This document shows, in pieces, positions 1,310 to 25,991 of a stretch of DNA of 64,000 nt. A program made the position numbers and the translations under genes. The DNA is from Prorocentrum cordatum (Eukaryota). The notes beneath the pieces are model-generated. The model was not told where the DNA came from. It saw only the letters and a list, made by a program, of their open reading frames with translations, and searched no databases. Numbering within the stretch: position 1 is the stretch's first letter; each line of letters starts with the position of its first letter. The stretch covers positions 1,178,001 to 1,242,000 of the forward strand of contig CAUYUJ010000003.1 of NCBI GenBank assembly GCA_963575745.1, given 5' to 3'.

Positions 1310-1343
<34 letters not shown>

Positions 1344-3534: not shown

Positions 3535-3735
3535 CTTTGTGACCAGAGTCACCTGGTGCGGGTCCTCTACGTCGGACGCGGGGATGAAGCGCCCGACAGG
3601 CTTCCACGTCGCGCGGCACTTGTTCAACGTCCACGACAGCCCGTGTTTCATGCTCTCGAAACCGTCGGAGAGGCCCGTCATGTCAAGGACCACCACGTAA
3701 CCACCGACGTACTCCATCGCCTGCTCCTTCGGCAC
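3535..3735 (-). CDS. FAH-family domain exon; remaining C-terminal exons not found in the window
   Basis: VPKEQAMEYVGGYVVVLDMT...WTLNKCRATWKPVGRFIPASDVEDPHQVTLVTK closely follows the FAHD1 pattern (AMDYVGGY, LDMT, WTLAK, DPH). AAG|GC donor at 3534. Confidence 0.88.
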
Positions 3736-3981
3736 CTTGGCGACACAGCGGAAACACCTCCTGTCCCCTCTTGCCCTGCCGTCTCCCATCCCCTCCTCCT
3801 CATCTTCCTCCTCCCGTCCCCCCATCCTCCCCTTGCCCTCGCCTCGCCTCCCTCCATCTCCTCCTCCCCTCCTTGCCCCGGCTGCCCAGACATGCCGCGC
3901 GCACCCTTCCCTCTGATCCTCTCGCACCGCCTCCCATCGGCCAGGAGGGGGGGGCTGGGGCAAGCTCTCGTTCCGCCCAGC

Positions 3982-4194
3982 CTTGTGGCAGGCCCGGGAG
4001 ATGACCACCCCGAGCTCCACCTCCCAGGCCATCGTGACGCCTGCCGGCACCTCTACGTTGCCCCCGCTTGGGGTGCACGAGCTCATGGGGCAGATGAACC
4101 ACTCGGGGTGGGCGTAGTCCTCGGCCTTCTTTTGGACGAGCGTCTTGTCCGCCGGGAGCTGCTGGCCCTTGTGGTTACAGATCGTCCCCAGCAC
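3982..4194 (-). CDS. FAH-family (FAHD1/acylpyruvase-like) domain exon
   Basis: VLGTICNHKG...PEWFICPMSS...MAWEVELGVVISRACHK contains the ExEL metal-ligand motif. AAG acceptor and AAG|GC donor. Confidence 0.88.
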
Positions 4195-4412
4195 CTTCGG
4201 GGGGGGGGGCACCGATGACGCGACACACAACTATAATTTCGACGGAACTCTAGCGCATCGGGGGCCGTGATTTCAAGCACCTTTCAACCCCGAGAGAAAG
4301 GCGGGAAACAGCGCTGCAGCTGCAGGGCAAAATTTTGAAGCGCCTTGGGCGGGATCGACTTCTGGTCGAGAGTTGGCCTGGCATCCCGAGCCCGATCCCG
4401 ACCCCCCATCCT

Positions 4413-4458
4413 CACATACACACACATACACACATACACACATACACACACAAACACA

Positions 4459-4493
<35 letters not shown>

Positions 4494-4645
4494 GCGCGCA
4501 CACACACATACACATACACATAAACACACGCACACGAACACGCACACGCACACGCGCACGCACACGCACGCGCACACGCACGCACACAAGCACACAAGCA
4601 CACAAACACACACACGCGCACACGCACACACAATCACACACGCAC
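4413..4645. repeat. (CA)n/(CACG)n microsatellite
   Basis: Directly visible. Confidence 0.95.
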
Positions 4646-4924
4646 TATCACGCAGAATAAAATGCTAACACCATGTGGTTCGTGGGATACGCGCGTCCGA
4701 ACCGAGCACACAGCACAAACCTCTTAAAACTCACCGTCACCCAAACGGTATGGCCAGAAAACGCAGGCCACCGAGCTCGGAATTTCCGATTCCCGAGCGC
4801 GTCGCCCCTGCGGGGCTGACGTTCCCGAGGCTACAGCGCCCCCCCCACAGGGCCAGAAGCAGGAGCCCCGGAAGACGAAACCTGAGGGGCATATGTTTTC
4901 CATCCTCTCGGGCTGGACGATCGA

Positions 4925-5194
4925 CTCTTCCTCCTCCCACACTTCCTCCTCTTCTTCCTCCTCTTCCTCCTCCTCCTCCTCCTACTCCTCTTCCTCCCCC
5001 TCTTCCTCCTCTTCTTCCTCCTCCTCCTGCTCCTACTCCTCCTCCTCCTCTCCTGCCTCCTCCCTCCAACCTCCTCCCATCCTCCTCCGCCCTCCCTCTT
5101 CCGTCCTCCGTCCTCCCTCCTCCTTCCTCCCTCCTCCTTCCTCCTCCTCCTCCTCCTGCTGTCCCTCCTCCTCCTGTGCCTGCTCCTCCTCCTA

Positions 5195-5226
<32 letters not shown>

Positions 5227-5232
5227 CCTCCT
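4925..5232. repeat. (CCT)n low-complexity tract; similar tracts at 13880-14200, 38570-39260, 39475-39670, 48780-49360, 53960-54290, 55435-55595, 56130-56320
   Basis: Directly visible; source of the poly-P/S/L/E/G/R ORFs in the track. Confidence 0.95.
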
Positions 5233-5738
5233 TTTTTATCTGAACCTGGCGGGCGTATCGGGCAACGAGAGACAAACCTAACAGACACAACATAATGCCG
5301 TAGAGTATGCGCCCGTCAGGCAGTAAGACAGCAGCTGAGGCTTGTGTTACCGCAGTGTCCCTCCCAATGCTGTTTGAGAACCCCCCCCCACGCCCCCCCC
5401 TTTAGACATGTATCCAGGCAAGCCGTATCAAAAAAAAACAACGCGTGCAATGAGAATGAAGGGGGGAAACCGGCGGCTCGAGGAATAGGTGCAGCAACAA
5501 AGCGAGAGAGCGCAGGGAGTGGCACAGTCTGTGTTGGTTTACCATGTGGCGTAGCAAACTATATAGCAATTCTTGGGCTGCTACCCGTCCTTTTCGGTTC
5601 CCCGGGGGGGGAGGCTTCACCGTTCCAATTCACCATTGTGGCCACCATTGTGGCAACCATTGTGGCCCTTGCTCCCCTTTTGGAAGTAAAGACCTGCAAC
5701 TGTGCCGCGCGGTGATTGGATCTCGCCTGTAAATGCTA

Positions 5739-5739
<1 letters not shown>

Positions 5740-5786
<47 letters not shown>

Positions 5787-5866
5787 GTGAGAAAGAGAGA
5801 GAGAGAGAGCTAAAGAGAGAGAGAGAGAGGAAGGATGAAGAGAGAGAGAGAGAGAGAGCGAGAGAG
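5740..5866. repeat. (GA)n microsatellite
   Basis: Directly visible. Confidence 0.95.
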
Positions 5867-8521
5867 GCTGTTCGTTCTGAAAGTAAAGAATATAGCTTAT
5901 GTCTGAGGCTGGCGCTGTAAAGACTCGCCTGAATATTTGGCAGATTGGTCATCCACCTCCAATGCCATCCCCATGGCCCGCAACCATCATCTCCCCAATA
6001 CATGGGAACGCGGGAAAAGGACAAGAGCAAGCACTGAGCAGGCGCCTGAACAAACTGGCTGGGTATGGCGTCGCGTGGGACAGTATGAGGGCAGACCGCG
6101 TGTAGCATCACGCGCGGCTCGTCGGCGAACGGCAACGACGGGCGCGAGGGGGGGGAACAAAGGAGGTACCACAAAGAAAAAGGAAAGACGGAGAAACAAC
6201 ATCGGGATGAGGTGCACTGATGCAGCGCTGGCATGTTGGATGTGCTGGCATGGCTTGGCACTGAACGCCCTTGTAAGCTGGCCTGGCGGCGCTGGCTGGT
6301 CTTGGCAGTGCGAAGTAAAAGCATCAGCCTAGGTTTGGCTGCACTGGTCTTATCCGATATATCTATATATACACACACACACACCTCTGACATGTGACCT
6401 GGGGGGCCGCGCCTCGTGTCCAGGGGGGCCTGAAAGAAAGACTGCAGGCGACTGAAAAATAAAAAAGTGCAAGCCTGCGTCGAGGGGGCCGGCAGTGGCG
6501 GCGGCTGCGAGCGCGGTGATATGACTCCTCCCAAAAAGATGTGAACTCCATGCCCGTGGTATCTCCAACCAGGAGACAGGACAGCAAGCTGACGACAAGA
6601 GCGTTGAAGGGCATAACCAGTGCAAACTGTGGGGCCACACCCTATAAGAGGGCATGGAATTCACTGTGTGAACTGCGAGGTTTGCGTAGAGACTGCGTAA
6701 GAGCCTTGTCACGCTGCTAGGCCGGCTCTGCCTTGCCGTGAGCAGTGCGCGCATGAGGCTGGCGCGCGCAAGAGTGCCCAGTAAACATGCGTCAGAGACA
6801 GCGCAGCAAGCTGGTGATATATATATATATATATATGTAACATAGGCGAGAGAAACCCCTCCACCTCCACAGCCAAAATACGACCTTGCCCACCAACCTC
6901 CACCATCGTGGGCAGTAAAGTCTTGGCTGGTCTGTAGCGCGCGCGGTATATCTGGCGGCACACGCGAAGTAGGATGCGAAAGTCAATGCAAAAATACGCG
7001 TGACAACGTTGACGCACGATGGCGCAAAGACAATCAGTCCGGCGACTGCGCGAACTGAACTTTGGAAGATGCCGGTGGCAGTATATTGATGTGCTGGCAG
7101 TCGTCCCCCCTCCCATCCAAATAGCCCCAAGCCAACCCATCCCGCCTTACTATCATCACGGCGGGTCTGGCAGTGTGTGGTGATTACGAGCTGGAGGACG
7201 TGTAAGAATGCGGTTAATGTTAAAAGAGTTTGCGTAGTCGGTAATCAACCCCGACTGGCACGCCAAAGTGGCCGCTAGTGCAAACACTATTCGCACTGCG
7301 AATTGGGAGAGTAGTTACAAACAGGACGTAAGGTGACGAAAGAAAAAACATAGGGCGTAAATTCAAGAACGGGTGCCTGTGACAGCGTGGGGCCGTCCGG
7401 AAGAGAACCCGCGCCGTAGTCCTTCGCTAGTCTGGGCATGGGCGTGAGAGAGTAGGGATGGTAGGCCTTGCGTGATCTGGTTCGGCCCCTCAGCAGGCAG
7501 AAGCGACGGGGGAGAAGAGGGGGGGGGCAAAGGAGGTGTCGCGCCGAAAGAGGCGACCGTCGAAGTCCCGTGCGTCCGCGAGCGGACGCACTGGACCTCG
7601 GCCTTCACCAGCCACCAGCGAGGCGCGGCCCCTAGGGGGAAGGAGGACATGCCAGCGGCAGGCAAAAGGAGAAGGGCAGGCGAGAGAAGTGTGAAAGACG
7701 AGACGGCCGAACGGCGGGCGCCAGGACGATAGCAGGAGGAGCCTCGGAAAAAAGGTAGGGAGTGGATGGGGCAGGAAGGAGGAGCCATCAAGAATCCTCG
7801 ATCTGCGGTAACCGATGTTCTGGGAGCCGTAGTGGTGGATGTGGTGAGGCCGTAGACTCTGCTATCCAATGTCGCAATATTGTCGCAACTTTGGCAACCA
7901 CATAAGAAAAGAAATGCAGCGTGGCCATTCTGCCACCCCCAATAGTCGATGCCGTCCGCTTGCGCGGTTGGGAACATTGGTTTCGGTGTTGGTGGCGCTG
8001 TGTGCTTAGGTACTGGGGACTAGGGCTTATGGTAGGTGTTTCCATAACGGTGGATATCCTTGGCGTTGTCGCAGTTCTGCTTGACGTATGTTACGCTGCC
8101 GTACTTCTGTCAGGTATTGCTGGTATTGCTGCTGGTGGTTGCGTATCGTCTCCTTGTAGTCCAAGAGCCTCTGGTCGTTACCGTCGTGGACGTAGTGCTT
8201 TTCTACATGGTCTGTGAATGCAAGAATTGGGGTGGAGCCCTTATGTCCGTCTTGGAACTGTTTCGGAGGCGCTATTGGCTGGAAGTGGGTATGTGTTGTT
8301 GCAAACGTTTGTGGTGCTAACTCTGATGTGGGCATGTCACTTAGCCAGCGTTAAGTCCGTGCAGCCCTGGGCGGTGGGCAGACGATGGGGATTCTGAGGC
8401 TTGGTGGAGGTGGGTGGATCGGGTTTCTGATCCCATATGTGGCGCTGAGCTGCTGGGCGGCAGTTGGGTTAGTCGCTGGTGGATGCTGGTATGGCGCGAA
8501 GGCCTCTGCTTGTTGTCTGTA

Positions 8522-11500
8522 TGAGAGAGCGCGCCCACAGCGCCGACGCAAAGGGGGGGGTCCCCCCTTAGCTACCCCCCTCCCTTCCACCTCCCCTGCT
8601 AGACGCCCCCTCCCCCCCCCTCCCCCCATTTTCGCCTCCGCCCTGAAGCTACCCCCCTCCCCCCCTTTCGCCACTCCGAAGCTGCCCCCCCCTTCCCCCC
8701 TTTCCAAAGACAGGGGGGAGCTTAGCTACCCCCCTCCTCCCCTTGACCCCCCTTTGTCGGAAGTTACCCCCCCCCTCCCCCCTTTGGTTCCAGGGGGGGG
8801 GAGCTTAGCACCCCCCCCTCCCCCTTTCGGCGCCTGGGAAGCTACCCCCCCCCTCCCCCCTTTACGCAAAGGGAGGGGAGGTATTAGCTACCCCCCGTCT
8901 CCCCTTGACCCCCGTCTGCCGGAAGCTACCCCCCCCCCCTTGGTTCCAAAGGGGAGGGGGAGCTTAGAAGCCCCCCCCCCGTTTCGGCACCTGGGAAGCT
9001 CCCCCCCCCCCCCCCCTTACGCAAAGGGAGGGGAGGTATTAGCTACCCACCCTCTCCCCTTGACCCCCCAGCCGGAAGCTACCCCCCCCTTTGGTTCCAG
9101 AGGGGGGGGGGAGCTTAGCAGTTCCCCCGCCCCCCCCCTGTCGGCACCCGGGAAACTACCCCCACCACCCCTTACGCAAAGGTGGGGAGGAGCTTAGCCC
9201 CCCCCCTTCTGTTGACCCCCCTTTGCCGAAGCTCCCCCCCCCTTACTTCCAAAGGGAATGGCGGACTTAGCAACCCCCCCCGCTCCCTTTCGGCACCGGG
9301 GAAGCGCCACCCCTCCCCCACCTTACGAAATGGGAAAGCGGAACATAGCAACATCCCTCCCTCCCTTGACCTCCCTTTGGCGGAAGCCCCCCCCCTCCTC
9401 AATGTTTTCCTCTTCCCCTGCAGGAAACTACCCCCCCCCGTTCCAAAGGAGGAAAGGCGGCTTAGCTACCACCCCCTCCATTGAACTCCCCCTGCCAGGC
9501 GATCCTCCCCCGTCGTCGCCGTCGTCGTTGCCGTCGCCGTCGCTCGACGTCTTCGTACGACGCCGTCGTCGTCCTCGTCGTCGTTGTCGCCGCCGTCGCC
9601 GTCATTGTCGCCGTTTTCGTATGACATCGTCGTGGTCGTCACGACGAAGGCAAGGTCATGCGAAGACGGCGGCGGACGACGGACGACGCGCGACCGACGA
9701 CCGACGACGACGACCACCCAGGGTCAGAGAAAACGAGACCACGACCCAGGGGCTGAGAAAACGAGGAAACCAAACAAGGTCCCAGGGGCAGAGAAAACGA
9801 GAAAATGAGACAACGAACCAGGTTACAAAAGAACCAGGGTCCGAGAAAACGAGACCACGACCCAGGGGCAGAGAAAACGCGAAAACGAACCACCGTCCGA
9901 TAAAACACGACCACGACCCAAGGGCCGACAAAACGAGACAACGAGAAAACAAACCAATGCCCGAGAAAACGGAGCCACGACCCAGGGGCCGAGAAAACGA
10001 GACAACGAGAAAACGAACCAGAGCCCGAGAAAGCGAGAACACGACCCAAGGGCCGAGAAAACGAGAGAACGAGAAAAACAACCAGGGCCAGAGAAAACGA
10101 AACAAAAACCCAGAAGCCGAGAAAACGAGACAATGAACCAGGGTCCGGGAAAACGAGAGAACGACCCAAGGGCCGAGACAACGAGAAAACGAGAAAACCA
10201 ACCAGCGCCCCAGAAAACGAGACCACGACTCAGGCCGAGAAAACGCCAATCTCGCCCCCAGAAAACGAGACCACGACCCAGGGGCAGAGAAAGCGAGAAA
10301 ACGATAAAAGGAATCAAGGCCCGAGAAAACGAGACTACGAACCAGGAGCCGGTAAAACTAGAAAACGAGAAAACAAACCAGCGCCCGAGAAAACTGAACC
10401 ACAGCCCAGGGGCAGAGAAAAAAAGAAAACCAGAAAACTAACCAAGGTCCGGGAAAACTGGACCACGACCGTGGGGCCGAGAAAACACGAAACGAGAACA
10501 CGAACCAGGGTCAGAGAAAACGAGACGACGACCCAGGGGCAGAGGAAACGAGAAAACGAGAAAACTAACCAGGGTCAGAGAAAACGAGACGACGACCCAG
10601 GGGCAGAGAAAACGAGAAAGCGAGAAAACTAACCAGGGTCAGAGAAAACGAGACCGCGACCCAAGGCAGAGAAAACGAGAAATCGAGAAAACGGACCATG
10701 GCCCGAGAAAACCAAATCACGGCCCAGGGACAGAGAGAACGAGAAAACGAACCAAAGCCCGAGCACACGAAACCACGACCCAGGAGCCGAGAAAACGAGA
10801 AAACGAGAAAACGAAACGGGGTCCGAGAAAACGAGACCACGACCCAGGGGCAGAGAAAACGCGAAAACGATGAAACAAACCAGGGTCCGACAAAACTGGG
10901 CCACGACAATGGGGCCGAGAAACCAAGAAAGCGAGAAAACTAACCAGGGTCCGAGAAAACAAAACCACGACCCAGGATACTATAAAACAAAAAAAAGAAC
11001 GAATCAGGGTCAGGTAAAACAAGACCACGACCCAGGGGCCGAAAAAACGAGAAAACAAGACAAGGAACCAGGGGCCGAGGAAACGAAACCAAAACCCAGG
11101 GGCAGAGAAAACGAGATAACGAACCGGGGCCCGAAAAACCGAGACCACGACCCGGGGGCCGAGTCAACGATAAAACAAAAAACCAAACAATGCCTGAGAA
11201 AACGAGACCACAATCCAGAGGCCGGGAAACGGAGAACACGAGAAACCGAACCAGGTTCCGAGAAAACAAAACCACGACCCAGGGGCCGAGAACACAAACA
11301 ACTAACCAGGGTCAGAGAAAACGAGACCACGACCCAGGGGCCGAGAAAATGAAAAAACGAGACAACTAACAAGGGACCGAGGAAAAATGGCACCACGACC
11401 CAGGGGCCGAGAAAACAAGAAAACGAGATCACGAACCAGGGCCCGAAAAAGCAACACAAGCCGAGAAAACTAGAAAACGAAAAACGAACAGGGGCCCGAG

Positions 11501-13097
11501 AAACCGAGACCACGACCCAGGGGCCGAGAAAACGAGACAACGAGACAACCAACCAGCGCCCGAGAAAACGAGACCACGACCCAGGGGCAGAGAAAACGAG
11601 AAAGCGAACCAGGGTCCGAGAAAACACGACCACGACCCAGGGGCCGAGAAAACGAGAAAACGATAAAAAGGAGTCAGGGCCCGAGAAAGCGAGACTACGA
11701 ACCAGGGGCCGAGAAAACAAGAAAACGAAAAAACTAACCAGGGTCAGAGAAAACGAGACCACGGCCCAGGGGCCGAAAAAACGATAAATTGAGAAAACGA
11801 ACCAGGCCCCGAGAAAACGAGACCACGACCCAGGGGCCGAGGAAATCAGAAAACGCGAAAACGACCCACGACCAGGGGCCGAGAAAACGAGAAAACGAAC
11901 CAGGGTCCGAGGAAACCACGACCCAAGGGCCGAGACCACCAGAAAACGAATGGCTCGAGAAAACAAGACCACGACCCAGGAGCCGAGAAAACGAGGACAA
12001 CGAGAAAACGAAGCAGGGTCAGAGAACACGAGACCACCACCCAGAGGCCGAGACAACGAGGAAACGAGAATACTAACCAGCGTCCGAGTATACAAAACCA
12101 CGACCCAGGGGCAGAAAAAAAAAACAAAAACCAGAAAACGACCCGAGAAAACGAGAAAACGAAAACACGAAACAGGTTCAGAGTAAACGAGACCGCGACC
12201 CAGAAGCCGAAAACACGAGAAAATAAGAAAACGAACCAGGGACCGAGAAAACAAGAAAACGATAAAAGGAATCAAGAGCCGAGAGAACGAGACTACGAAC
12301 CAGGGGCCGAGAAAACAGTAAAACAAGAAAACGAACCAGGGGCCGACGTTATTCTCCAATGCGTTCTCTAGCGCTGCGGTGCGCACCTGTCGTCAGGGAT
12401 TCCGCCATTTTGCCAGAGCCCCAGAAGAGAAGGGGGGGGTGGGGGGCGTAGCTTCGGAAGCCCCCCCCAAAGGAGGGGGGAGGGGAATAGCTTGAAGCCG
12501 CCCCCCACTGTGCCCAGACCAAAACAGGAAGGAGGGGGGGGGGTAGCTTCAAAAGCCCCCCCACCTTTGAAAGGAAAGCCCGGGCTCACCTTCTGCTCCG
12601 GAAAAGGGAGGGAGGGGGGGGAGCTTCGAAGCCCGGGCTCACCTTCTGCTCCGGAAAAGGGAGGGAGGGGGGGGCCAGCTTCGAAGCCCCCCCCCCTTAG
12701 CCAGGGCCCCCCTAGCTTAGAAACCCTTACAGAAGGGAGGGGTGGGGTAGCTTCGGAAGCTCCCCCCCCCTTTTGGAAGGGAAGGGGGGGAGGTAGCTTG
12801 AAGCCGTGGTCTCCCTGTGTCCAAACCAAAAGAAGGGAGGAGGGGGGTAACTTCCGACCCCCCCCCCCTTGAAAGGGAAGCCCGGGCTAACCTTCTGCTC
12901 CGGAAACGGAAGGGGGGGTGGGGGTAGCTTCGAAGCACCCCCACCCTTTTGCCTGGGCCCCCCTAGCTTAGAAACCCTTGCAGAAGGGAAGGGGGGTAGC
13001 TTCGGACCCCCCCCTCCCTTTTGGAAGGGAGGGGGGGGGTAGCTTGAAGCTGGGGCCCTCCTTTTCGTATTCCCGGCGCTGCGGGCGCGCTCTTTCG
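8522..13097. mobile_element. Non-autonomous foldback/TIR element with TA target-site duplication and internal satellites
   Basis: Terminal inverted repeats TGAGAGAGCGCGCCCACAGCGCCG (8522-8545) and CGGCGCTGCGGGCGCGCTCTTTCG (13074-13097) match at 21/24, with TA on both flanks. Subterminal GAAGCTACCCCC arrays are in inverted orientation. Confidence 0.75.
9718..12345 (+). repeat. Tandem satellite, about 60-65 bp degenerate unit (CCAGGGTCAGAGAAAACGAGACCACGACCCAGGGGCCGAGAAAACGAGAAAACG...)
   Basis: Dozens of visible iterations, extremely T-poor on the + strand. Confidence 0.95.
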
Positions 13098-14449: not shown

Positions 14450-17400
14450 GGCGGCGGCTCCTTCGCCTACGACTTTGCGCCGGGCCCTCCGCTCGATGAT
14501 TGGCCCCCCCCCCCCCGGACGACGTGCCACCCGTCCCTGGAGGGGGGAGGGGCGCCACTGGCGACGCCGTCGCCCGAGAGCACATCACCAAGGCTGATAA
14601 GAAGCACGGTAACCGAAGCCAAATCGCACGCCATGCACATGGGGAGAAGAACGTTTACTCCCAGGAGTCGATTGTCTCTGATCCCTCGCAGGTCCTCTGG
14701 GGCGTCGATTTCGATTCCGACGCCCGCCCGGAGCTTCTCCGCGCGGTCGACCACAGGCCGTCCCCCATCCACCTCCATGCCCGTCTTGAAGTTGAGCCCG
14801 TCGAGCTGTTCCAGCAGCGTGCAGTAGGTGGTCGGGCCCCACTCGGCCCCCCCCCGCGCGGCGTGCACGGCCGAGATAAAGCCCGATCCTCGTGCGAGGG
14901 CCGCGTTCGAACCACGACTCGGGCGGCGGCGAGCATCTCGCGGCCGACCCGAAGGGAACGAAAAGGGAAACGAACGGTTTATCGAACTTCCTCTGTCACC
15001 CTCGTCTGCGCATGATGACGCAAGCAGAAATACGGCACCTCGGAGACCCAGCGGGGGGCTGGTAGTGGAGCTGTCATCAGGAGCGTCCTCGCACCATCCA
15101 GGACAATGCCGCTTGCCCCCTCGGCCAATGAGTTTTGCCTCTCGCTGGCAGGTCGAATGGGGTCATGAGCGGTCACTGACTCGCCCAGCTGGCCCACGTT
15201 CAGGGACTTGCACGCTCGCCTGAGTTCAGGCATCAACATATACGTCCGCAATAGCATGTGCCCGAAGATTGACGAAGAAACCGACCGCGTGCTTCGCCGA
15301 CGTGCCGCGAGAGCCCTGTCTAGCCAGAAAGTTGGTGAACGGGTCGCGTGCAGTCGAGCGCGAGGTTTCCCCGCGGGGCGCCCATCGAGATCGCATCAGC
15401 CGCGAACTAGCGGCCCACGGCACGCAGGCCCACGAACTTTTGGTCGGCTAGGAGTGCGGCTGAAGCTGTTCGAAGGCCAAGTTATAAGTATTATTATCGT
15501 GCTGTGCCCGTAACGTATCCGCCCACTTAAACGTTGTGCAATGCGGACTATTGGGCGAGCGCGACAGCAAGCGCTGCCGAGAGACAGCCTCGCGCTTGAA
15601 GCGATCTGTCTCCGAGGCACCCCCAAGCAGATATTCTTCATCCGGGTCATCGGGCCTGTCGTCGTCGACGATTTCAGCAGGCCCCGGGTCGAACAGCTCA
15701 TCGACCAGGATGATCGCGGGGTCGCCGGGGGCAGGTGCAGCCGTTTCGACCAGCAACGCAGCTGCCCCGACCCCCCTCGCCCGCCGGCAGCCGCGCGCGA
15801 CGCAGTCGCGCGACGGCTCCGTTGCGTCGGGGCGAGATGCCACGTGGCACGTTTCCGCTCCAGCCCAGCCCAGGTTCGCAGCCTGCTGGGGCTCATCGTA
15901 GAAACAGGTGATCGTATCCATTCCATGCAACTGCAGCCTCAGGGGTGCAGACGCTGTGAGCATCAATGAAAGAATCCTCCATCGCGCCGCGCTTGAAGCG
16001 CCTTCGGCGATCATCTGTTGCGAGCGCAGCTCGAGAGTCGCGCGGTCTCTCGCTGCCTGGAAAGGTAGACCTCCCACTTGCCCAGGGTCAGCCACATCGG
16101 ACTTCGTGTCGATCGCCGCGCAAGCCCACCGCCCATGCCGCCCCTGGGAGAGCGGGCGCTGCACCGTCTACTCGACCCGAGGCCTCTCTGCCTGCCACGG
16201 CGCGGTAAGGGGTCTTCCCGTCGACAGCAAGATCCCCCCGCGCCCCAGCAGGCAGTTGTAGATATGGGACTCCGCCGGCTCCCCAGCGGCAACTTTAGCG
16301 GCGCTCTATGCAGAGATCACCTCCGGATTGCAGGGGCTTAACGCAGGCTCCCCCGACGGCGCCGAGGGCCCGCGATTGCCCGCTGGCCGCGTTAAGATGA
16401 TCGGGGGAGTCAAGGGCGGCATCCTTTCCATCCAACCTACTTCTTAGAAAACATTGTCCGTGACAAGGTTGGCCCTGCGCCCAGTGTCGATGATGGGCCG
16501 TCTGTCCGATCTCGATGGGGTCGGCCCCCTTTTCTCGGCTTCGCTCTCCCAGCGAGCGCGGCATCGCAGCTGCCCTCGCACTGGTCATCATAGTCTGGTG
16601 GGTGCCATGTCCATGGGCACTCTCACAATCCTGCCATTGAATTAAAGATGTGGTTAAAACAGAAAGATCAGTTAGCCATCTGGTAAGTATATCCATTAAT
16701 CTGCTTCCACAATAACATGCCTCATGGCCACTCTCGGATCCCTGTTCCAAGCCAATCCATGAGTGCTGGACTTCTCGTTCGACGGCGGCGGCCTCGCCGC
16801 GTGCGAGCTGTTGGCGCACTTTGACCCTGCGTTCCCTGGCGCTGGCCTGCCCAGAAGGAAAACCAGAACGATGACCCGCTGCACTCGGCACCTTGCGCCG
16901 ACCCCCTCGAGGGGCCCTGAGAGTCCAAGTGGCTGGGCGCGGGGTTGCGGGGCCAATGCGCGCCATCTTTCGTTGCGTCGCATAGCGACGCTCGCGGCCG
17001 CTGTCGCCGCGGCCGCCCGCGACGCCTTCAATCAACGGCGTCAGCGGGGGGCGCGGGAACGCCGCTAGCCCGGGCGCGCCTGGGGCGCCGCGCAAAAGCC
17101 GCATCGGCATCGGCAACTTCGCACCGCGAAGCGGCGCGATTCGCAGCTGGGGCAGCCGGGCCAGGGCTTCAATTGTCAAAAACGTGCGAATGATGTTGGT
17201 GGCTGTTTTCGGTGAAGCTGTCATCGGGGACAACCCGGAATCCTATCGGCAACGCGCGGAGCCCTGGCGCGGCGCGACAGACTGAGGGGGCAGCAAGCCC
17301 CGCCCCCGCCAAATCACTGGGGGACAAGGACATGCCCCCCCCCCCTGCCCCGACCGACGCCGACGACATAGTCGCCCAACGCTGGTTCTCGGCATCGCGG

Positions 17401-20030
17401 ATGCCGCGGAGGATCGCGCGACCCCGACAGCTCGCGCCGAAGGGGCGCGTCTGTCCAGTTAGGCGTCTCCAGGGCCGCCTGTGTTCCTTGCCTTTGCCCG
17501 TCCCCGCGCCGCCCTCGCCCTCGTCGTCGCCCGACCCTCCGGGGGCCTCGTTCTCGGCGACATTTTTGGCGACGGCATGTATCTGACCAGCGCTCCGCTC
17601 ACAATGATTGGTTTGCCGGCCTTCTCGGGGGTGGCCTCGCGCTTGCCCCTGGGCGCGTTGTCCACCCCCTTGGCTTTCCCGCGTTGGGGGCGATTTCCCA
17701 GGGGGGGGGGGCGCGCGCCGCGACTGAGCGCGCGGCGGCGCCCTCCCTTTGCGGAGCCCCAGCAAGGCGCGCGGCTCTGCGACAGCCGTCGCGATTGGCC
17801 ACCTCCGCCCATATCTTTCCCGCGCAATCGACCGCGCCCCTGATCGTCAAGCCGCGGTCCGATTTGCATTTGGACATTGCCGTTTCGCCCCCCGCCCGGC
17901 CCTTCGCCCCCGCCCCCCCGCCCGCGCCGGCCAGCGCAGCCGCGGACTTCTCCAGGGCGTCGTTCGCTCAAGCGGGGGCCCGTTTCTCAGGCCAGCGCGC
18001 GCGCTGGCATTGCCCCCGAGAGCACGGGCGTTTCCGCCGCGTGAACTTGCGGCGCTCCTCTGACAGCATGGGGCGGCAATCTACATGCGCGGGGGCCGGG
18101 GAGCTTCTGCCACTGCCACCTCCGTCGCCTCCGCCCCCCCCCGCCCCCGCCCGGCGCCCCCCGGGCATTCAATTGTTTTCTCTGGGCGGCGCGGCTGCGA
18201 GCGCCGCGGTCGTAACATTGGCCGGCTGGTTTGCCCCAGTAGCCATTCGTGTGACTTCGGGGCTCCCCCGCGAGGATCGTTGCCGCGGTCGCGCGTTACG
18301 AGGACCATCGCCATGCAAAAGCACTTCGTCTTCTCGCGATCAGGAACGCCCCCGGGCGGGGGGTCGGAAAGACTTGCGCGGCTGATCCATCTCGCCCATT
18401 ATCTCCAGCAGCTCGCGGTAGAATCGAAGTAAGTCGGCAGCGGCATCTTCGCCCGAGCCGTGGATCCGAACTCGCTTCAAATACTGGGGCGCGCACGCCT
18501 GACCACGGTGCGATCGCATGCGTGACAAAGATGGGTAGAATGGGGCGACCTTTCAGCATCGTCTCCTTCTTCAACATGGCGGTGTCGCAGCGGTCCACTT
18601 CGCGTGCCAAGTGTCTGAACCGTGGATAAGTTCGTGGGCCAAACAATCTCATTGATTTTACTCATCAGGTCGGAGGCGACCCGAATCCTCGAGAGAATCC
18701 GATTCCACCGTCTAGATATCGAATGCATCAGAAATCCAAACAACGGCGGCTCTTCACTTCGGGAAACGCGATGCAACGCGCGCGATGGCGCCCCTGCTCC
18801 ACTTTCGGAAGCCGGCCTCGTCAAGAACGGGATATATGGATACATCCTTGATTTTTCCGCGACGCTTTCGCGGCGGGGCCGAGGGCCCCCCCCCCCCGAA
18901 GCGGGGGCGCCCCCGTCCCCGCCGGGAGGGCCGCCGGGCAGTCCATCATACCTTTCACGACGCCGCTCTTCATCGTCCTCATCCCCGTCCTCTGATGGGT
19001 CGCCAGGTTCACTATCAGAGTCGTCGCCCGTCGAACCACTGCCCCCGCCAGGGTTGTCGACGCCGCCCGGAGGGCCCGATCCTTCCATCGGTCTATCAGG
19101 GGGCGGCAGCTCGCCCTCGTCGTCTTCGCCTGTCAAGACGCCGTCGCCCCCCCCTTCGAGCCGAGGAAAGCCCCGGGAAGGTGGCCGCGGGGGTAGCGCT
19201 AGAAATCGCATCGTCCGTTTGGTTTCCTCCTTCCGTTGTCTTTCCACTCCCCGAGACAAGGCTCCCTGGGCGGCCTCAGATTCCGCGGGCCGAAGGGCGA
19301 GCCCTTTTGCTCTGTCGTCCTTTCTCTTGGCTATCTGCTCGGCGGAGCTCTCCGCTCCCTTCGCCGCCCCAGCGAGCGTCTCTGTCGGTCGCCGGTGCCG
19401 TGCCTCTGCCTTGCCCCCCAATGCTTCTAACCTCTTCGCGCCGCCGCTACGGGGCGGCCGCGCCGCTGCCGCCTCCGAGGCGCCCGCGGCGCAGTTGAGG
19501 GGGCGCCCCTGGAGGCGGCGGGCAGTCGCTGCCAGGGGGCTGTTTGAGCCGCGATGCGCTCCGCGAGCTGTCGCCTCCGCTTCTTCGTTCTGATGTTTCA
19601 TCTCAGCTTCTCCCTCGTTCTTGGCGCGGCCCTGGCGGCGCGTCTGGCGCCGCCATTTCCGCGCGCCGAGATGCGGATCGCAGAAGGCCTTGGAAACGCG
19701 AGGACAGTCATGCCCGGCCCGCCGCCGGCACGCGCGCAGCGTTGCCCGCCGCCGACCGCCGCCGGGGCGGCCCTCAGCCCACCCCCCCCACATAACATCC
19801 TTGGGGGAGGGCGCCGGGCGCATTGCGTCGCCGTTCGCCCTCGCGAGGTGTCGACGCAGTTCTTGCTGCGCGCGATTCGCAGCGCGTTCCCGGTAAAAAT
19901 GCTCGCGCTGTGATGGCCCAGGCCCTCGTGGTCTGCTCGGTGCTTGCCGCTGCGGTTCGGGCAGCCGTTGGCGCCTCGCGGTCGGCCGGGCTTTTCGCGC
20001 GCGCAACTTGACCTTACTACTAACATCTCG
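14450..20030 (-). mobile_element. Decayed Ty1/Copia-like LTR retrotransposon remnant (gag, protease, integrase; no RT or RNase H seen)
   Basis: Gag-like MLKGRPIL and LLRFYRELLEIM (about 18650-18380); aspartic protease IIDTG (about 16485); degenerate integrase Zn finger KREAVSRQRLLSRSPNSPHC (about 15600-15535); integrase core PELRRACKSL...QNSLAE...IVLDGARTLL (15230-15010); post-integrase segment to about 14700. Many frameshifts; boundaries approximate. Confidence 0.7.
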
Positions 20031-22964
20031 TACCTCCGCGGCCGCTCGAAACCTACTTCTTATAAGCTAGCCGCTTCGGCGAGCGCCATCGCCTCGTTCC
20101 GGGCCGGGCGTCTGCCATCTGCTTCTCACCCTGTCCACCGTCGCCACGCTCTGCCGAGTGGCGCGATGGGCGGCTGCCTCCGCGGTTGCCTTCTCCGCGA
20201 GAGCCTTCAGCAGCGCCTCCTGGGCCTCGTTATTTCACCTTCGCGCTGTTAGCCGCCGTCGCTTCGAGCTCCTGGGCAGCCCTGCGGCGGGCAGCTGTCT
20301 GCGCGTCAGCGGCCCCCCCAGATTGCGGACCTGGGCAGCTCTGCCGCGTTCGCCTCGCGATCGCGGGCGCTCCTCTCGCCCGCGACAGACGGCCCCATCC
20401 TACTGGCCAGTTCCCTTAGCCGGGTAACTGAATGTCTGTTCTGTGGCCACGGCCTGCTGCCCCATCTCCACATCGGAACTTACTCGAGCCATCTCGGCGC
20501 GACCCGAATCGGCCTGGAGGCGCGCGGCGGCTCGCTGCTGAAGTTTTGTCTGAGCGAATCGTTCCCGCGTCTGCGCCAGCTCGCTGTCTCTTTCGTCGAT
20601 GGCCTCTCAGCGCCTCTTCCCCCCCGCCCCCCCCCCCCCCCCCCCCCCCCCCCCATTCCCACCCTCGCAGCGCCGCGCAGTGAAGAGCGGGCGGGGGGGG
20701 GGGGGGGGCAATTTGGCGGGGAAATTTGACGTCGCAGCGCGGGCAACCCGGGGCCTCATGCGTCAGCCCGGTTTCCCGGGCAACGGCTCTCTGGGAACCG
20801 AGCGCAATCGGGGCCGAAGTTAGCGCGCGGCCCCTGCGACCTAACGCTCGACGCAGTGGATCTGGCTTTGCGAGCAGAGGACTGGGGCGCGCCCGATGGG
20901 GCCCCGTCAACGCGAGTCTTCGCTTGCTGAGCGAACCTTCCCCTCGAGCGAGCCCCGCGGGGCGGGCCAGCGCGCGGCGCCCCAGGCGCGGCCCCCGCCG
21001 CGGCCCCGCGCCGCTCGGGGGGGTCGGGAGGCCCGGCGACTCAGGAACGCCATTCCCCTCGCCCCCACGGGCTCGCGCGCGGGGCCCCGTCCATTCGCGA
21101 TGGCTTCGCTGCAGGGGAGGTCGCCGACAAGTCTATCAGCGGTCGGGGCTGCCCGATGGCTGGCCCGCTCGCGCCATCCTAGCCCATGGCCAGCGGCGTA
21201 ACTCTCCCGGGAAAGGGAGAATCCTCTCTCTCGAGCCCTGCACCCTCATCCTGGTCGCTGAGCGTCTCGGCGGGCGCCCAGCCGCGCGCCCTCCAATGTC
21301 CGCGCCCATGCTCGCAAACCCCGGCGCCAGCTTAATATCATAGATGGTTGGGCCTTCGTCGCAGGCTGGAGCTCCTCGGTCGCCCGAGGGAGACGCAGGG
21401 TCGACTTGGCTGACGCGGTGGCCTCCGAAAATGTGGAGATGGCGCCGCCAGGAAAGTCGGAGTGAATTACGTCGGCCTGGTTGGCCCGCCCTCGTTGTGC
21501 GGGCCGCGCAGGGGCCGACTGCCGTACACCCCCCTCTCCCGTGACTCGACGGTCCTGTGAAGTATCCGGCCTACCTCCGCGCCGACCCTCCACTGAATCA
21601 TTGCAATCGGCGGAGTCTGTCTTGCTGAGATTTTGCGGAAGCCCCGCGGTCGCGCCAATGACGCCGTCATCAGACGCGACCGCAAAGGACTCTTCCCAAG
21701 GTGCAACTTACCTTGCGCGGCAGGTACGGACCCACCGCCAATTTCATGAACTATAAGTTTGTTGGGGTCCGACGCCTCCCCGTGCGCATTTGGCCCCATC
21801 ATCCATGAAACTTTCGACACAGTCGCGAAACCTCTTGGGTCCCATTTCGGTTGGTAACAAACAGTTCTCCAGGTTGATCTCACATATGCTGAAGGGGAAC
21901 CCACAAGCAAAATACTTGCTTATGATCTGGTAACTTGTAGTGTAGTGGTTAAGTTGCTCAACGGAGATCCCCTGCTACGTCTCGGTGATGCGGAACGTGT
22001 GGACATGGCTAAACGTGTCCGTTCAGCAAATTGAGCTATGATAAGTTTGCTCATGTTGGAGAGTACCCGGCCCGGGCCAGGTGGAGGGCGCGCGCTTTTC
22101 ACCTATGAGTACACATAATTTCGACATGTACGTAAGTGGCGGCGCCAACCTTCCACTCTGGATGTTGGCGCAAAAGGTTTAAACATAGCGGAAAGAGCGT
22201 TCGTAATGATTCCTTCTCTCGGGCTGGACGAAAGGGGTAGCGAGTCTAGGTCACCCAACTTCGCGCATCACCGCCCACCCTCTTTTACCCCAAGCAATAC
22301 TGGGGTCGACAGATACACAGGTTAATAAACACCAATTTCAAAATCCTCCATACGTTTCCATGCATTCTAGATGATCTGATTCCCTTCTGTTGCCGATCTG
22401 TTCCCACATGCGTTCCAAGATTTCCAAATGTACTTGTGTGTGTGCGTGTGTGTGTGTGTGTGGGTGGGTGGGTGGGTGGGTGGGTGGGTGGGGGGGGGGG
22501 GGCGCCTATCTTTGCTTCCTGAAGCAAGGCAGGGGGCGTCGGCTTCCTAGCGCGCCCCGCGGTGCGCGACGCGCGGTCACCTCCTCCGCGTCCTCGCGAG
22601 GTCACCTTGGACAAATGCAGCTCTCCGGCCGAGGTCGCGACGCGCGAAGCGCGACTATCTTCGCGCCCCTGGGGGCGCAATACGTAGACGAACCAGCTCA
22701 TGTAGCTGGATGTTCCTCGCGCTGTCCTCGATGCATGGCCGCCTCGAGGCATCAGGGAATGGGACAGGTCGGCGAGGCCGAAATCTGCCGCATGTGAAAC
22801 CCAAACCAGCCGCATATAATCTGCCGCATGTAAAATTTAAAGTTCACCCTTTCCCGCCCCCCCCCTTTCGCTGAACCCCGTCCTCCCCCTCGGCCAACCA
22901 GCCAATCAGCAAACTAGCCGGCCGGCAGGCCAGGCCGGATGCTTCCATGGCCTCTCCCCCCTAC

Positions 22965-23006
22965 CTTCTGGCCCTCCAGCAGCGGGTTGATGGGCAGGGC
23001 GGACTC
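22965..23006 (-). CDS. PanE-FAH gene exon 5: 14-aa linker ESALPINPLLEGQK
   Basis: TTCCTCTGAG acceptor, AAG|GTAGG donor, phase 0 at both ends. LLEGQK joined to VLGTICNH recreates an FAH-like first strand. Confidence 0.65.
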
Positions 23007-23532
23007 CTCAGAGGAACAACATCGGCATAAACATCTACTTTGGGAGGTCCGGGCGGATTTCTTGGATCGGCGCTGGACCCGTGGGGCGGCGCCTTCGGCG
23101 CCGCGCCTAACGCGCTCCGCACGCATGAGACGGGGTCCGACGCCGACTCAGGAAACCTGCGCGGATCTCCGAAAGACTAAGTATGTTCAGGCCGCTTTCT
23201 CCCCTTTTTGGCGGCAAGCCTGGGGAGGAAGTCAAAAGGCAGACCTTCTCAGAAGGCGCCGGGCCTTCTCAAAAGCCCAGCTTCTGCCTCGGGAGAAGGC
23301 CGAAAGAGCTTCTCAGAAGGCGGGAGGCCTCCCGAGCCTCCCGAGAAGGCCCGCCCTCTCTGACTCCCCCCCTGGGCGACCCAATTTCCGGGTCATACCT
23401 CAGGTGTCCGGCGGCCGCTCGGGACGATGCGGGTACCCCGGAACGCCCTCGGCAGGGCGCAGCCGCTGGGGCCGCGCCGCGAGGCCAGAGAGCCAACGAG
23501 GGCCCACGGCAACCCCGAGGACCCCGAAGCTC

Positions 23533-23607
23533 CTGGCGCGCCATCCGCTCACGCATGAGCAGCGTGGTGAAGAGGGCGCCGATCACCGGCGTCGGGATGC
23601 CCTTGGC
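23533..23607 (-). CDS. panE: PanE-FAH gene exon 4: C-terminal helix of the KPR domain
   Basis: AKGIPTPVIGALFTTLLMRERMARQ matches the G[VI]PTP end of KPR. AAG acceptor and a probable CAG|GA donor; no stop codon at the domain end. Confidence 0.8.
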
Positions 23608-23822
23608 CTTCGCGGGTTCGGGGCCCGGGCCGCCCTCTCCCCCTCCCGCGAAGAGCCCCCCCACCCCCGCCACGGGGGCCGAGAGGCCGCCCAGGAACGG
23701 CGGCGACGAGGACGGCGACGAAGACAAAGGAGGGCGCGGACGAGGGCGAGGGAGAGGACGAGGACGAGGACAAGGGAGAGGACGAGGACGAATTCGACGA
23801 CGACGAGTAGGACGGCGAGGGC

Positions 23823-24614
23823 CTTGCCCATGCGGACCACGGACCCGAGAAGGTCGTCCAGTTCGCTGGGGCGGCCCGCCCAGATGTCCCTACTGCAGCT
23901 GGTGGTCGCCCCCTTCGACTTCTGGAGGAGCGCGACGCGGTCCTCCAGCCACTTGTCCTCGTACTTGAGCCCGTAACTCCTGGCCAGCGCGATGATCTCG
24001 TGCATCACGCTGCGCCACATGTCTTGGAGCTCGGGAACAGTCCCAATGATGTCCTGAGTGACAGCGGGGCCGCACGTCGCGCCGACTGCTGTGCTGGCGC
24101 AGATGAACGCAAACTTCTCCCAAATCTTTGGCATTGCCTCGCTCTCAAGGTGCCCCTCCATGCCCGGGCTCGAGCTAAAGATCCTCGCCACCGCCTGCGT
24201 CTTCGAACTGGGTGGACCACTGTACTCTCCGAACGTGATGTAGGGCGGGTCAGCAGCCCAATGGCGGATCATACCAGGCTCCTGGATCGCAGCAACGATG
24301 TTGCAACATCCGGCCAGAGCGTGCCCAACCCCCCAGCCCTTGACAATGTCTTGGATGTTATCAAATCCTTCGACGCCGTTCTGGAGAGGCAATATCAGCG
24401 TGTCGGCCCCGCACCACTTCCTGCACATCTGAAGGCACTTCTTGGCCTCCCAGGCCTTGCAGCACAGCACTATAACGTCGGCCACGAAATCCTCCTCCGT
24501 CTTTCGGCACTTCGGATCTGCCTCTGTGCCAATGTCCGCCTGGATGCTGTTTGTGTCGATGATGGCATCAAGCTGCTCTGGCGGTACAGTCGCGTCCCCG
24601 CAGATGCTTTTGAC
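23823..24614 (-). CDS. panE: PanE-FAH gene exon 3: core of 2-dehydropantoate 2-reductase (ApbA/PanE family)
   Basis: 264 open codons with KPR motifs DVIVLCCKAW, LPLQNG, catalytic Lys in IWEKFAF, TSCSRD and catalytic Glu in RPSELD. CAG acceptor and AAG|GC donor. Confidence 0.93.
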
Positions 24615-24901
24615 CTGCGGAGCGCAGACAACCGCAGCATCACCCCTCTGAAGGAAGCTCTCGCGGCAAGGCTGTGTCGCGTTTCCCAGGAACTGCAGGC
24701 GGAAAAACACGAGGCCGCGGAACCCTTGCAAGGGCGCCGACCGAACGCCTGAGCACACCAACATGAACGAATATGACCCCGAGGAAAAAACATGTTCGGG
24801 CGAAATCCAAACGAACCCCACGCCCATGCCAAATGGGTTGGCATATGTATGGTTGTTCGACTCAGCAGAAGTTCAGCCCACATTTGCCCCTCAAGAGGGG
24901 C

Positions 24902-24996
24902 CCGCACGCCGTGCTTCCTCAGCGCCGCAAGGGCCTGGTTGCGGACCATGAAGCTGACGCGCTGCCCCTGCTGCGCGAGCCGCGCACCGAAATTCG
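24902..24996 (-). CDS. panE: PanE-FAH gene exon 2
   Basis: CCAG acceptor. Phase completes exon 1 (G+CG = Ala), giving GCGGVGANFGARLAQQGQRVSFMVRNQALAALRKHGVR, a typical KPR N-terminus. GC donor at 24901. Confidence 0.85.
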
Positions 24997-25029
24997 CTGG
25001 CCCAACGGGCCAGGGGCGTACTAAAATCT

Positions 25030-25810
25030 CTGGTGACTGGTTGAGAATTTTCTAGTTCGCGCACGCGGGGCCGCTTCTGGGGGTCCCCGGCCGGAAAGTA
25101 CCCGGGCAAGGTCCTGGCAAGTCCGTCTCAGAGATGGCTTTGCTCCTGGGCGCTGCCTGCAGAGCCTCCCAGCAAGCCTCAAGAAGAGCCAAGATGCCCC
25201 GAAGAGGTCGCCAAGATAATTTCAGAGGGCTCCCAGACGCCACAAGATCGCTCCAAGACGCCCAGTATTGCCCCAAGACATCTCAAGAAGCATCCCAGAC
25301 GCCCCGAAAAGCCTCCAGAAGCATTCCCAAGGAGGCATCAAGAAGTAAAACCCATCGATGTCATGTCATATCGCAATGATTTGTACATTCTCGCATTTTC
25401 AACTCGACGCTCCAAGACTGGTCAAGAGGCTCAAAATCTCGCCCCAAAACGCCCCGGGGCGCGACACAGCCCAAGCGGGCGCCACGAGGGCCCAAGAGGC
25501 CTCCAAGATCGTCCCAACACAGCCCCAGACAGCCCCAAGACAACCCGAAAGGCCTCCAATACGGCCCAAGAGGCCCCCAAGATGGCTCCAAGAGCGGGCC
25601 TTGACGGGGGACCCGAACAGACATTTCGAGATCTCGGCCCCGAAAGGCCCCAAGAGGCCAACAAGAGGCCTCCAAGAGGCCCCAGGAGATCCACCCCAAA
25701 AAGTCACGAGGCCCTCGAGAGGCCTCCAAAGAGACCCTGAGCAGCCTCCCAACGAGGGGTCTTTTCCACGATCAGTTTGGCCCCCAAATGCCACAAGAAG
25801 CCATCGAGAG
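25030..25810 (+). repeat. Dispersed CCAAGA/GGCCCCAAGAGG-rich repeat inside intron 1; similar sequence at 40410-40620, 49620-49900, 58850-59230
   Basis: Shared low-complexity motifs at four locations. Confidence 0.6.
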
Positions 25811-25954
25811 GCCTCCTCCTCATCCTCATCCCCCCCTCTTCCTCCTTCTCGTCGTCGTCGTCCTCCTCCTCCTTCTCGCTCGCCACGAACACACAAACAT
25901 ATTGCACCATTGGTGCAATGTGGGCCGGCGGAATGAGCGAAGCGATTAAATAAC

Positions 25955-25991
25955 CCCCGACGCCGCCGCACCCGAAGATCAGCCAGCGCAT
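25955..25991 (-). CDS. panE: PanE-FAH gene, first recognisable exon: Rossmann GxGxxG motif of ketopantoate reductase
   Basis: Translates MRWLIFGCGGVG plus one base, followed by a GT donor at 25954. An in-frame TGA and a possible AG acceptor at 26018-26017 lie upstream, so the exon may begin at 26016 with further exons upstream. Confidence 0.8.

Follow-up and report, generated by a model that had tools for sequence, protein, structure and literature searches.

The stretch of DNA analysed here (the window, 64,000 nt: positions 1,178,001 to 1,242,000 of contig CAUYUJ010000003.1, Prorocentrum cordatum assembly GCA_963575745.1; all coordinates below count from its first base) carries on its minus strand a gene in which an enzyme of the ketopantoate reductase (KPR) family is fused to a domain of the FAH family, and that both the gene and the fusion are genuine we regard as practically certain. 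The evidence as a whole is best explained, with good probability, by one nuclear gene of a dinoflagellate-type genome, with at least eight exons that are cis-spliced into a single mRNA encoding a two-domain protein of 564 amino acids. Seven of these exons lie between 25991 and 3535. They amount to 1455 nt or 485 codons, each starts in phase 0 and none holds a stop, and their translation agrees letter for letter with residues 1-485 of P0001, a 564-residue protein known from metatranscriptome contigs. Exon by exon, P0001 matches the window at 100% identity (tblastn), and every exon is present in the window as a single copy. An in-frame stop lies 10 codons 5' of the start codon in exon 1.

The fused mRNA and its introns

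The joining of the two domains in RNA is of particular weight. In each of four runs from four studies (X7, X1, X5 and X13, of studies P3, P1, P2 and P4), comparison with window positions 3986-23985 yielded one contig made up of the pieces 23985..23820, 23604..23530, 23003..22963 and 4192..3986, with 0 mismatches and 0 gaps over 489 exonic bases. The bridging contigs are 1824, 2175, 1703 and 2124 nt long, and their joints skip 215, 526 and 18,770 bases, which are introns 3, 4 and 5 (Table 1). Each joint can be shifted by 5-6 bases, and only at 23823/23607, 23533/23006 and 22965/4194 do an AG acceptor and a G[T/C/A] donor both result. Two of the four runs are on record as polyA RNA, the RNA status of the other two being a guess. 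Twenty of 22 runs (7 studies) contain 0.73 of the sampled words of 23530-24660, approximately the exonic share of that stretch and not its full DNA.

The first-pass annotation, made from the letters alone, had proposed that the KPR frame runs through the end of its domain without a stop, that a 42-nt phase-0 exon with a GT donor at 22964 joins in frame to an FAH exon that begins at 4194 without a start codon of its own, and that seven exons add up to 485 codons in consistent phase. All of this is borne out: the KPR frame stays open past the donor at 23533 for 88 more low-complexity codons, all coordinates match those obtained with P0001, and the junctions 23533/23006 and 22965/4194, which it had suggested seeking in RNA, are both bridged in all four runs. 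That one gene and one mRNA encode both the KPR-family and the FAH-family domains, as it had also claimed, is confirmed by the joined contigs and the identity to P0001.

Table 1. Exons, introns and the intron 5 tandem array (window coordinates).
Feature	Position	Strand	Description	Basis
Exon 1	25950..25991	-	start codon and Rossmann GxGxxG, residues 1-14	P0001
Intron 1	24992..25949	-	958 nt, without canonical ends	inferred from P0001
Exon 2	24902..24991	-	residues 15-44, KPR N-terminal domain
Intron 2	24615..24901	-	287 nt, GC..AG then G	inferred from P0001
Exon 3	23823..24614	-	residues 45-308, remaining ApbA and most of ApbA_C
Intron 3	23608..23822	-	215 nt, GC..AG then G	RNA joint in 4/4 runs
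Exon 4	23533..23607	-	residues 309-333, final helix of KPR fold
Intron 4	23007..23532	-	526 nt, GA..AG then G; KPR/FAH module seam	RNA joint in 4/4 runs
Exon 5	22965..23006	-	42 nt, residues 334-347, N-terminal lead-in of FAH module
Intron 5	4195..22964	-	18,770 nt, GT..AG then G; repeat-rich	RNA joint in 4/4 runs
Exon 6	3982..4194	-	residues 348-418, FAH domain including Glu-x-Glu metal ligands
Intron 6	3736..3981	-	246 nt, GC..AG then G	inferred from P0001
Exon 7	3535..3735	-	residues 419-485, FAH domain including Asp ligand and catalytic Lys
Intron 7, beginning only	1..3534	-	GC donor at 3534; continues past left window edge
A-rich tandem array in intron 5	9831..12346		about 2.5 kb, 64/128-nt units

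Neither tblastn nor a 5-mer peptide scan found exons in the window for residues 486-564 of P0001, the last 79 of the protein; since these residues are not encoded here, intron 7 must run past the left edge. A pentapeptide match at window position 28 was considered as the 3' exon and rejected as spurious.

The donors of introns 1 to 7 read, in order, TT (with a question mark), GC, GC, GA, GT, GC and GC, and the acceptors of introns 2-6 are all AG followed by G, so that five of the six complete introns have ends of the dinoflagellate type (a G[T/C/A] donor and an AG-then-G acceptor). The shares of GC-AG and GA-AG introns in dinoflagellates are given in Table 1 of PMC7789003. According to the same table, mean intron length in seven alveolate genomes ranges from 124 to 893 bp and the longest intron from 3.6 to 178 kb; an intron of 18.8 kb is therefore rare, not unheard of.

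The weak point of the gene model is intron 1. It has no canonical GT/GC/GA..AG ends in any of five equivalent placements, a 4-nt repeat stands at its boundaries, and it falls outside the stretch covered by the RNA contigs; its splicing would be non-canonical, and, judging by P0001, this copy would also supply the 5' end of the mRNA. A nearby canonical GT..AG choice keeps the frame and changes the conserved Gly-Gly-Tyr of the Rossmann motif to Gly-Ala-Asn, where P0001 has Gly-Gly-Tyr. No second copy of intron 1, as a repeated element, was found in the window besides a GAG-type microsatellite. The two intron ends pair with a duplex energy of -37.9 kcal/mol, as against -25.9 +/- 4.9 for control windows (minimum -38.1), and are unpaired in the minimum-free-energy fold. 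In Amoebophrya, introns without canonical ends have been described that carry boundary repeats of 3-5 nt (PMC7789003).

The missing splice ends of intron 1 are also a point in favor of another explanation, in which the expressed mRNA comes from a different, near-identical copy or allele, the copy in the window being silent or an assembly artefact. Contigs cannot separate identical copies, and no run contains the complete DNA of the stretch (all 20 stand at 0.73), so that the repeat-filled intron may be misassembled. However, introns of tens of kilobases are tabulated for dinoflagellate genomes (PMC7789003), and a silent or misassembled copy would have to retain seven intact, in-phase exons, each occurring once in the window and free of mismatches where RNA covers them, together with introns 2-6 whose dinoflagellate-type donors and AG-then-G acceptors stand precisely at the RNA junctions. 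We consider this explanation improbable. Although contigs cannot reveal 5' ends or rare isoforms, and dinoflagellate genes are often co-directional and trans-spliced, there is next to no chance that two separate same-strand genes, the FAH gene with its own trans-spliced 5' end, gave rise to the joined contigs by read-through or chimerism, because the join is in frame and runs through a dedicated 42-nt exon in all four runs, no start codon precedes residue 384 in the FAH part, and the same fusion recurs in 32 of 34 relatives, the nine close short FAH matches all being pieces (three read, six judged by length and coverage). The spliced-leader core is matched nowhere in the window, even with up to 3 mismatches allowed. 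In a relative's metatranscriptome contig, the first six bases (L081:1-6) equal what we take to be the six terminal bases of the dinoflagellate spliced leader, a match too short to count as evidence.

Module seam and the two active sites

Pfam places ApbA at residues 3-176 of P0001, ApbA_C at 205-324 and FAA_hydrolase at 368-547, with scores of 95.7 (PF02558), 70.3 (PF08546) and 138.3 bits (PF01557) that all lie above the gathering score, and stop-to-stop segments of the minus strand separately match ApbA, ApbA_C or FAA_hydrolase. The subfamily model TIGR00745 (apbA_panE) is passed with 169.1 bits against a cut-off of 141.35, and no NCBIfam equivalog model reaches its cut-off for the KPR half. 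An AlphaFold model from a 31-sequence alignment has a pLDDT of 84.5 and a pTM of 0.76, confidence being low in a 30-residue insert (61-90) and at 441-460, around the catalytic Lys. Target-normalised TM-scores from Foldseek are 0.83-0.90 to KPRs and 0.87-0.88 to FAHD1; no solved structure spanning both domains was found by Foldseek (query-normalised TM at most 0.49). By family and fold, an NAD(P)H-dependent 2-oxo-acid reductase of the KPR family (ApbA/PanE fold) takes up residues 1-333. It is followed at residues 334-547 by a domain of eukaryotic FAHD1 descent, with no flexible linker between the two modules.

The 18.8-kb intron had at first been seen as the divider of the two domains, and in this the initial reading has to be corrected. 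The Gly-Gln-Lys that ends the 42-nt exon aligns with the Gly-Lys/Arg/Thr-Lys before the first strand of FAHD1 (MAFFT, animal FAHD1-like proteins), and in the AlphaFold model residues 331-350 have a pLDDT of 87-91, with a short helix (341-344) followed by the first FAH strand (347-351). The small exon is therefore part of the FAH module. It is at the 526-nt GA-AG intron that the two domains meet, and the giant intron interrupts the FAH module after its first 14 codons.

Residue counts for both halves refer to 31 aligned fusion proteins. In the reductase half, Asn123, Lys211, Ser283 and Glu295 are invariant in all 31, as is the Rossmann motif, and this catalytic set aligns to the same motifs in 3HWR, 3I83 and 5AYV, the Ser being mapped relative to a conserved Asp. 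The catalytic residues of E. coli PanE are Asn98, Lys176, Ser244 and Glu256, and its substrate contacts Asn180, Asn184, Asn194 and Asn241 (PMC3478992, PMC10127515). With E. coli PanE, the T. kodakarensis enzyme (5AYV, 5HWS) and the structural-genomics entries 3HWR and 3I83, the fusion shares the Pfam domains, TIGR00745, the fold and the catalytic set. It differs from them in the two positions four and eight residues after the catalytic Lys, which are Ile215 (31/31) and Thr219 (30/31) where all three solved KPRs (3HWR, 3I83, 5AYV) have Asn at both, in Ala280 (31/31), which stands seven residues ahead of the conserved Asp and corresponds to an Asn in T. kodakarensis, in the insert at 61-90, and in the C-terminal FAH domain. 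Neither the substrate-holding Asn nor an equivalog-level score, the two marks of a PanE equivalog, is found, and E. coli PanE matches exon 3 only at E ~1. We infer that the reductase half is catalytically competent and, because its substrate pocket is more hydrophobic, not a canonical ketopantoate reductase.

Other enzymes with the KPR fold act on 2-oxo acids other than ketopantoate, namely KivR, the fungal ketoisovalerate reductase, and D-mandelate dehydrogenase (3WFI, 5X20) (PMC3478992; Foldseek). The match of 3WFI to the fusion is weak in sequence (E 5.6e-4), and KivR retains the Asn180 equivalent (PMC3478992), whereas the fusion does not. The nearest stand-alone relatives of the reductase half, at 35-39% identity (E 1e-42 to 1e-48), form a widespread bacterial KPR-like subfamily that has the motif W-x-K-F-x-F-I and occurs in Anaerolineae, Halomonadaceae, Acidobacteriota and Bacteroidota; they share with the fusion the Ile four residues after the catalytic Lys and differ from it in being single-domain proteins of about 310 aa.

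The FAH half has all that defines the superfamily, i.e. the FAA_hydrolase domain, the fold and the Glu-x-Glu...Asp metal site. Glu405, Glu407, Asp436 and Lys457, equivalent to Glu71, Glu73, Asp102 and Lys123 of FAHD1, are invariant in 31/31. Among solved proteins, residues 374-546 come closest (E 1.8e-29) to human and mouse FAHD1 (6FOG, 1SAW, 6SBI), a mitochondrial enzyme with oxaloacetate tautomerase/decarboxylase and acylpyruvase activity. FAHD1 resembles the FAH half in fold, in the Glu-x-Glu and Asp ligands and in Lys123. It differs in that the fusion's FAH half stands behind a reductase, has no presequence and has replaced His30, Glu33, Lys47, Gln109, Thr192 and Pro193 in 29-31 of the 31 proteins. 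FAH numbering follows an alignment to 6FOG and the MAFFT alignment with animal FAHD1-like proteins; before FAHD1 position 39 it rests on a conserved motif in P0192-P0194 and on what we take to be the human numbering. Another two-module enzyme on the FAH fold is E. coli HpcE/HpaG (1GTT), whose N-terminal FAH domain shares an Asn-His...Gln motif with the fusion and is likewise without the Arg/Gln pair. It differs as an FAH+FAH fusion of bacterial aromatic catabolism with low identity to the dinoflagellate protein; the best FAH-type NCBIfam match of the latter is TIGR02305, at 87 bits and under its cut-off.

The two halves are equally conserved, with a mean pairwise identity of 0.69-0.74 in the KPR half and 0.71 in the FAH half over the 31 proteins, and with 93 invariant columns in the former and 48 (of 200) in the latter. 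As far as alignments can tell, we read the FAH site as remodelled and not as decaying.

Possible function and location

Both families act on alpha-keto carboxylates, so that the fusion is most simply read as carrying out a coupled reaction on a single 2-oxo acid, and we offer such a mechanism tentatively. The FAH half would still bind a divalent metal together with an alpha-keto or enol carboxylate. It is predicted to be unable to act as a hydrolase or decarboxylase in the manner of FAHD1, and would more likely tautomerise, position, form or in some other way prepare a 2-oxo acid, which the reductase half would then reduce to a D-2-hydroxy acid.

Several findings weigh against this coupled reaction. 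The FAHD1 His30-Glu33 dyad, the Gln109/Arg106 pair and the Thr-Gly-Thr-Pro loop are not retained: His30 has become Gln358 (31/31), Glu33 Pro361 (30/31), Lys47 Cys (29/31), Gln109 Gly443 (31/31), and Thr192 and Pro193 Ala526 and Gly527 (31/31 each), while the position equivalent to Arg106 (440) is variable. Around the bacterial KPR-like genes, an FAH gene lies within 6 kb in 0 of 80 loci. In FAHD1, the Glu33-His30 dyad serves the catalytic water and Gln109 the conformational control of oxaloacetate, and mutation of the equivalent of Gln109 in Cg1458 removed 98% of decarboxylase activity (PMC8398924).

Given these replacements, the FAH domain could be non-catalytic. It would then be a pseudoenzyme, conserved for metal binding or oligomerisation and serving to regulate or scaffold the reductase half. 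The loss of the His/Glu dyad, Lys47, Gln109 and Thr192/Pro193 throughout the family fits this explanation, as does the low model confidence at 441-460. However, the three metal ligands and Lys457 stay the same in all 31 proteins, the share of invariant FAH columns reflects a level of constraint as in the reductase half, and many of the invariant residues are new ones of the active site (Asn354, Gln358, Gly443, Ala526 and Gly527), which gives the site a remodelled rather than a decayed look. We regard a pseudoenzyme as unlikely.

Alternatively, the protein may be what its family names say, a genuine PanE coupled to an acylpyruvase, decarboxylase or tautomerase of FAHD1 type, working in pantothenate/CoA synthesis or in metabolite repair. 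The TIGR00745 score, the standing of human FAHD1 as best solved FAH relative, and the invariance of the KPR Lys, Glu, Asn and Ser as well as of the FAHD1 metal triad and Lys123 would all be expected of such an enzyme. Moreover, the bacterial subfamily with the same Ile after the catalytic Lys is annotated as 2-dehydropantoate 2-reductase, and the pocket may still accept ketopantoate. Set against this are the failure to reach any equivalog cut-off, the E ~1 of E. coli PanE against exon 3, the absence of a mitochondrial presequence, and the Ile and Thr that stand where three of three solved KPRs have Asn, Asn180 and Asn184 of E. coli being substrate-binding (PMC3478992, PMC10127515). Five catalytic or positioning residues of FAHD1 are replaced family-wide, among them Gln109, whose weight in decarboxylation the Cg1458 mutant illustrates (PMC8398924). 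We find this explanation doubtful, and it bears on the first-pass annotation, which had read the fusion as a bifunctional 2-oxo-acid enzyme: the union of KPR and FAH stands, and the suggested link to pantothenate/CoA synthesis and the FAHD1-type acylpyruvase, decarboxylase or tautomerase chemistry find no support as worded, since both the Asn residues that hold ketopantoate and the FAHD1 residues have been replaced.

A more specific form of the coupled reaction is a lineage-specific two-step enzyme with new chemistry, in which the FAHD1-derived domain, still with its metal site and with new catalytic residues, would make or present a hydrophobic 2-oxo acid and the KPR-fold domain would reduce it to the D-2-hydroxy acid. 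This is a long shot, and 4-methylthio-2-oxobutyrate (MTOB) as its candidate substrate is speculation. Reduction of MTOB is a step in the algal dimethylsulfoniopropionate (DMSP) pathway (MTOB reductase), for which the excerpts of the literature that we found name no algal enzyme; no literature was found that links MTOB or DMSP with dehydropantoate.

As for location, P0001 has no N-terminal presequence, the Rossmann motif beginning at residue 7, and the N-terminal extension amounts to at most about 25 residues in the 29 of 31 fusion proteins that start before this motif, the other two starting later. The C-terminus is -AKL in three Symbiodiniaceae-type proteins and -SKL in one (P0029, P0031, P0032, P0026), and the protein of the window ends differently. 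Such ends resemble signals of the peroxisomal targeting type 1 (PTS1). The protein would probably be cytosolic, perhaps peroxisomal in some lineages, and, unlike FAHD1, presumably not mitochondrial. Nine further relatives end in Ser/Ala/Pro-x-Leu.

Relatives, surroundings and significance

Among 34 long relatives (486-2000 aa, found with the largest KPR exon as query), 32 combine ApbA, ApbA_C and FAA_hydrolase (PF02558, PF08546 and PF01557), and the recurrence of this architecture, proposed at the outset as a check, is thereby established. They include MMETSP and Trinity dinoflagellate transcripts and Symbiodiniaceae gene models, with named members from Durusdinium, Effrenium, Cladocopium and Polarella. 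The fusion forms one 50%-identity cluster: a HMMER search of 1.84 billion representatives gave 11,979 matches, and among the best 150, which were examined, only P0005 spans both halves, the others being KPR-only or fragments. With the FAH part as query, shorter proteins gave nine close matches at 57-73% identity, followed by animal FAHD1 at 38-39%; of the three that were read, two start within the KPR C-terminus and the third is labelled partial in its name, and the remaining six were judged pieces from length and coverage alone. The same query against proteins of 310-987 aa (45 matches) returned dinoflagellate fusions and unrelated FAH proteins only. Two metatranscriptome contigs of relatives at 70-71% hold an uninterrupted fusion open reading frame (ORF), and an exact 49-base piece of exon 2 had 0 matches in metagenome contigs.

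In bacteria, no KPR+FAH fusion spanning both domains was found in 401 sampled Pseudomonadota genomes, nor among the best 150 HMMER matches or the 45 matches of the FAH part, and three long open frames in the Pseudomonadota genomes proved to be KPR only. The neighbours of the bacterial KPR-like genes are unconserved, being unrelated housekeeping genes (15 loci; 52 of 98 listed ORFs). As far as searched, the fusion is restricted to dinoflagellates, which is not proof of absence elsewhere. An unconfirmed contrary lead is a 50-member ESM Atlas cluster labelled bacterial (608-aa representative), with FAA_hydrolase and ApbA in every member and F420_oxidored besides; the two families may have been fused there independently.

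Some side observations concern individual relatives. Some members of the bacterial KPR-like subfamily carry an added DUF1572/DinB, GNAT or cupin domain (P0045, P0065, P0066) and in no case an FAH domain, and at one of its loci a DUF1572 gene lies directly downstream (L046:6953-7474). P0036 (355 aa) is KPR-only and diverges at the position of the GA-donor intron; it may be an intron-retention product, a stand-alone reductase isoform. Three predictions from Symbiodiniaceae and other gene models (P0028, P0030, P0034) are apparently cut or merged, P0028 ending a few residues into the FAH module and P0030 having a GDSL lipase in front and a partial FAH domain.

The window itself has a GC content of 0.53-0.70 (2-kb bins) and abundant microsatellites and tandem arrays. 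The A-rich array of intron 5 is nearly T-free on the plus strand, with an AT skew of 0.865 in the 10-12 kb bin, and the intron also holds C-rich 155-nt repeats and CA, CTC and TCC microsatellites. Of 84 ORFs of at least 120 aa that overlap intron 5, 32 were left out (microsatellites, tandem arrays or exon overlap), and 0 of the 52 scanned reach a Pfam cut-off, the sole listing being EAV_GS, whose 17.9 bits fall short of the cut-off of 25. RNA over the intron consists of short or 95-99%-alike pieces only, apart from which a joint 14941->16773 with 20-nt sides occurs in X1 and X13. Low-depth RNA contigs fall in 14600-20700, and a loose-end consensus at 14921 is identical in X1 and X13. These pieces are probably repeats expressed elsewhere, a nested transcript being possible; stretches that no contig covers carry no weight as evidence. 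In the rest of the window, a scan of 80 of 89 ORFs of at least 170 aa gave one domain above cut-off, a reverse transcriptase: a 750-aa open frame at 31396-33645 on the minus strand matches RVT_1 at 48 bits. It is probably a retroelement resembling long interspersed nuclear elements, to which the adjoining frames at 33101-35748 may also belong.

Proteins with the fusion are already in public sets, under automatic names such as "Acylpyruvase FAHD1" and "2-dehydropantoate 2-reductase". In agreement with the first-pass annotation, which knew of no characterised fusion of this kind, none was found in literature searched by the family names with "fusion" and by dinoflagellates with either enzyme. 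To judge from the aligned residues, both active sites differ from those of the textbook enzymes.

Most dinoflagellate genes have no assigned function, and gene models in these organisms often break at long or non-GT introns. The locus provides a worked example, a single gene that combines GC, GA and GT donors with an intron of 18.8 kb and with one whose ends are not canonical. What it encodes is an RNA-verified, conserved domain fusion, confined to dinoflagellates as far as searched, and the fusion suggests that both halves serve one pathway. Since both active sites appear to have been rebuilt and then frozen, a search for a new 2-oxo-acid reaction in this ecologically dominant group of algae could reasonably start with this protein.

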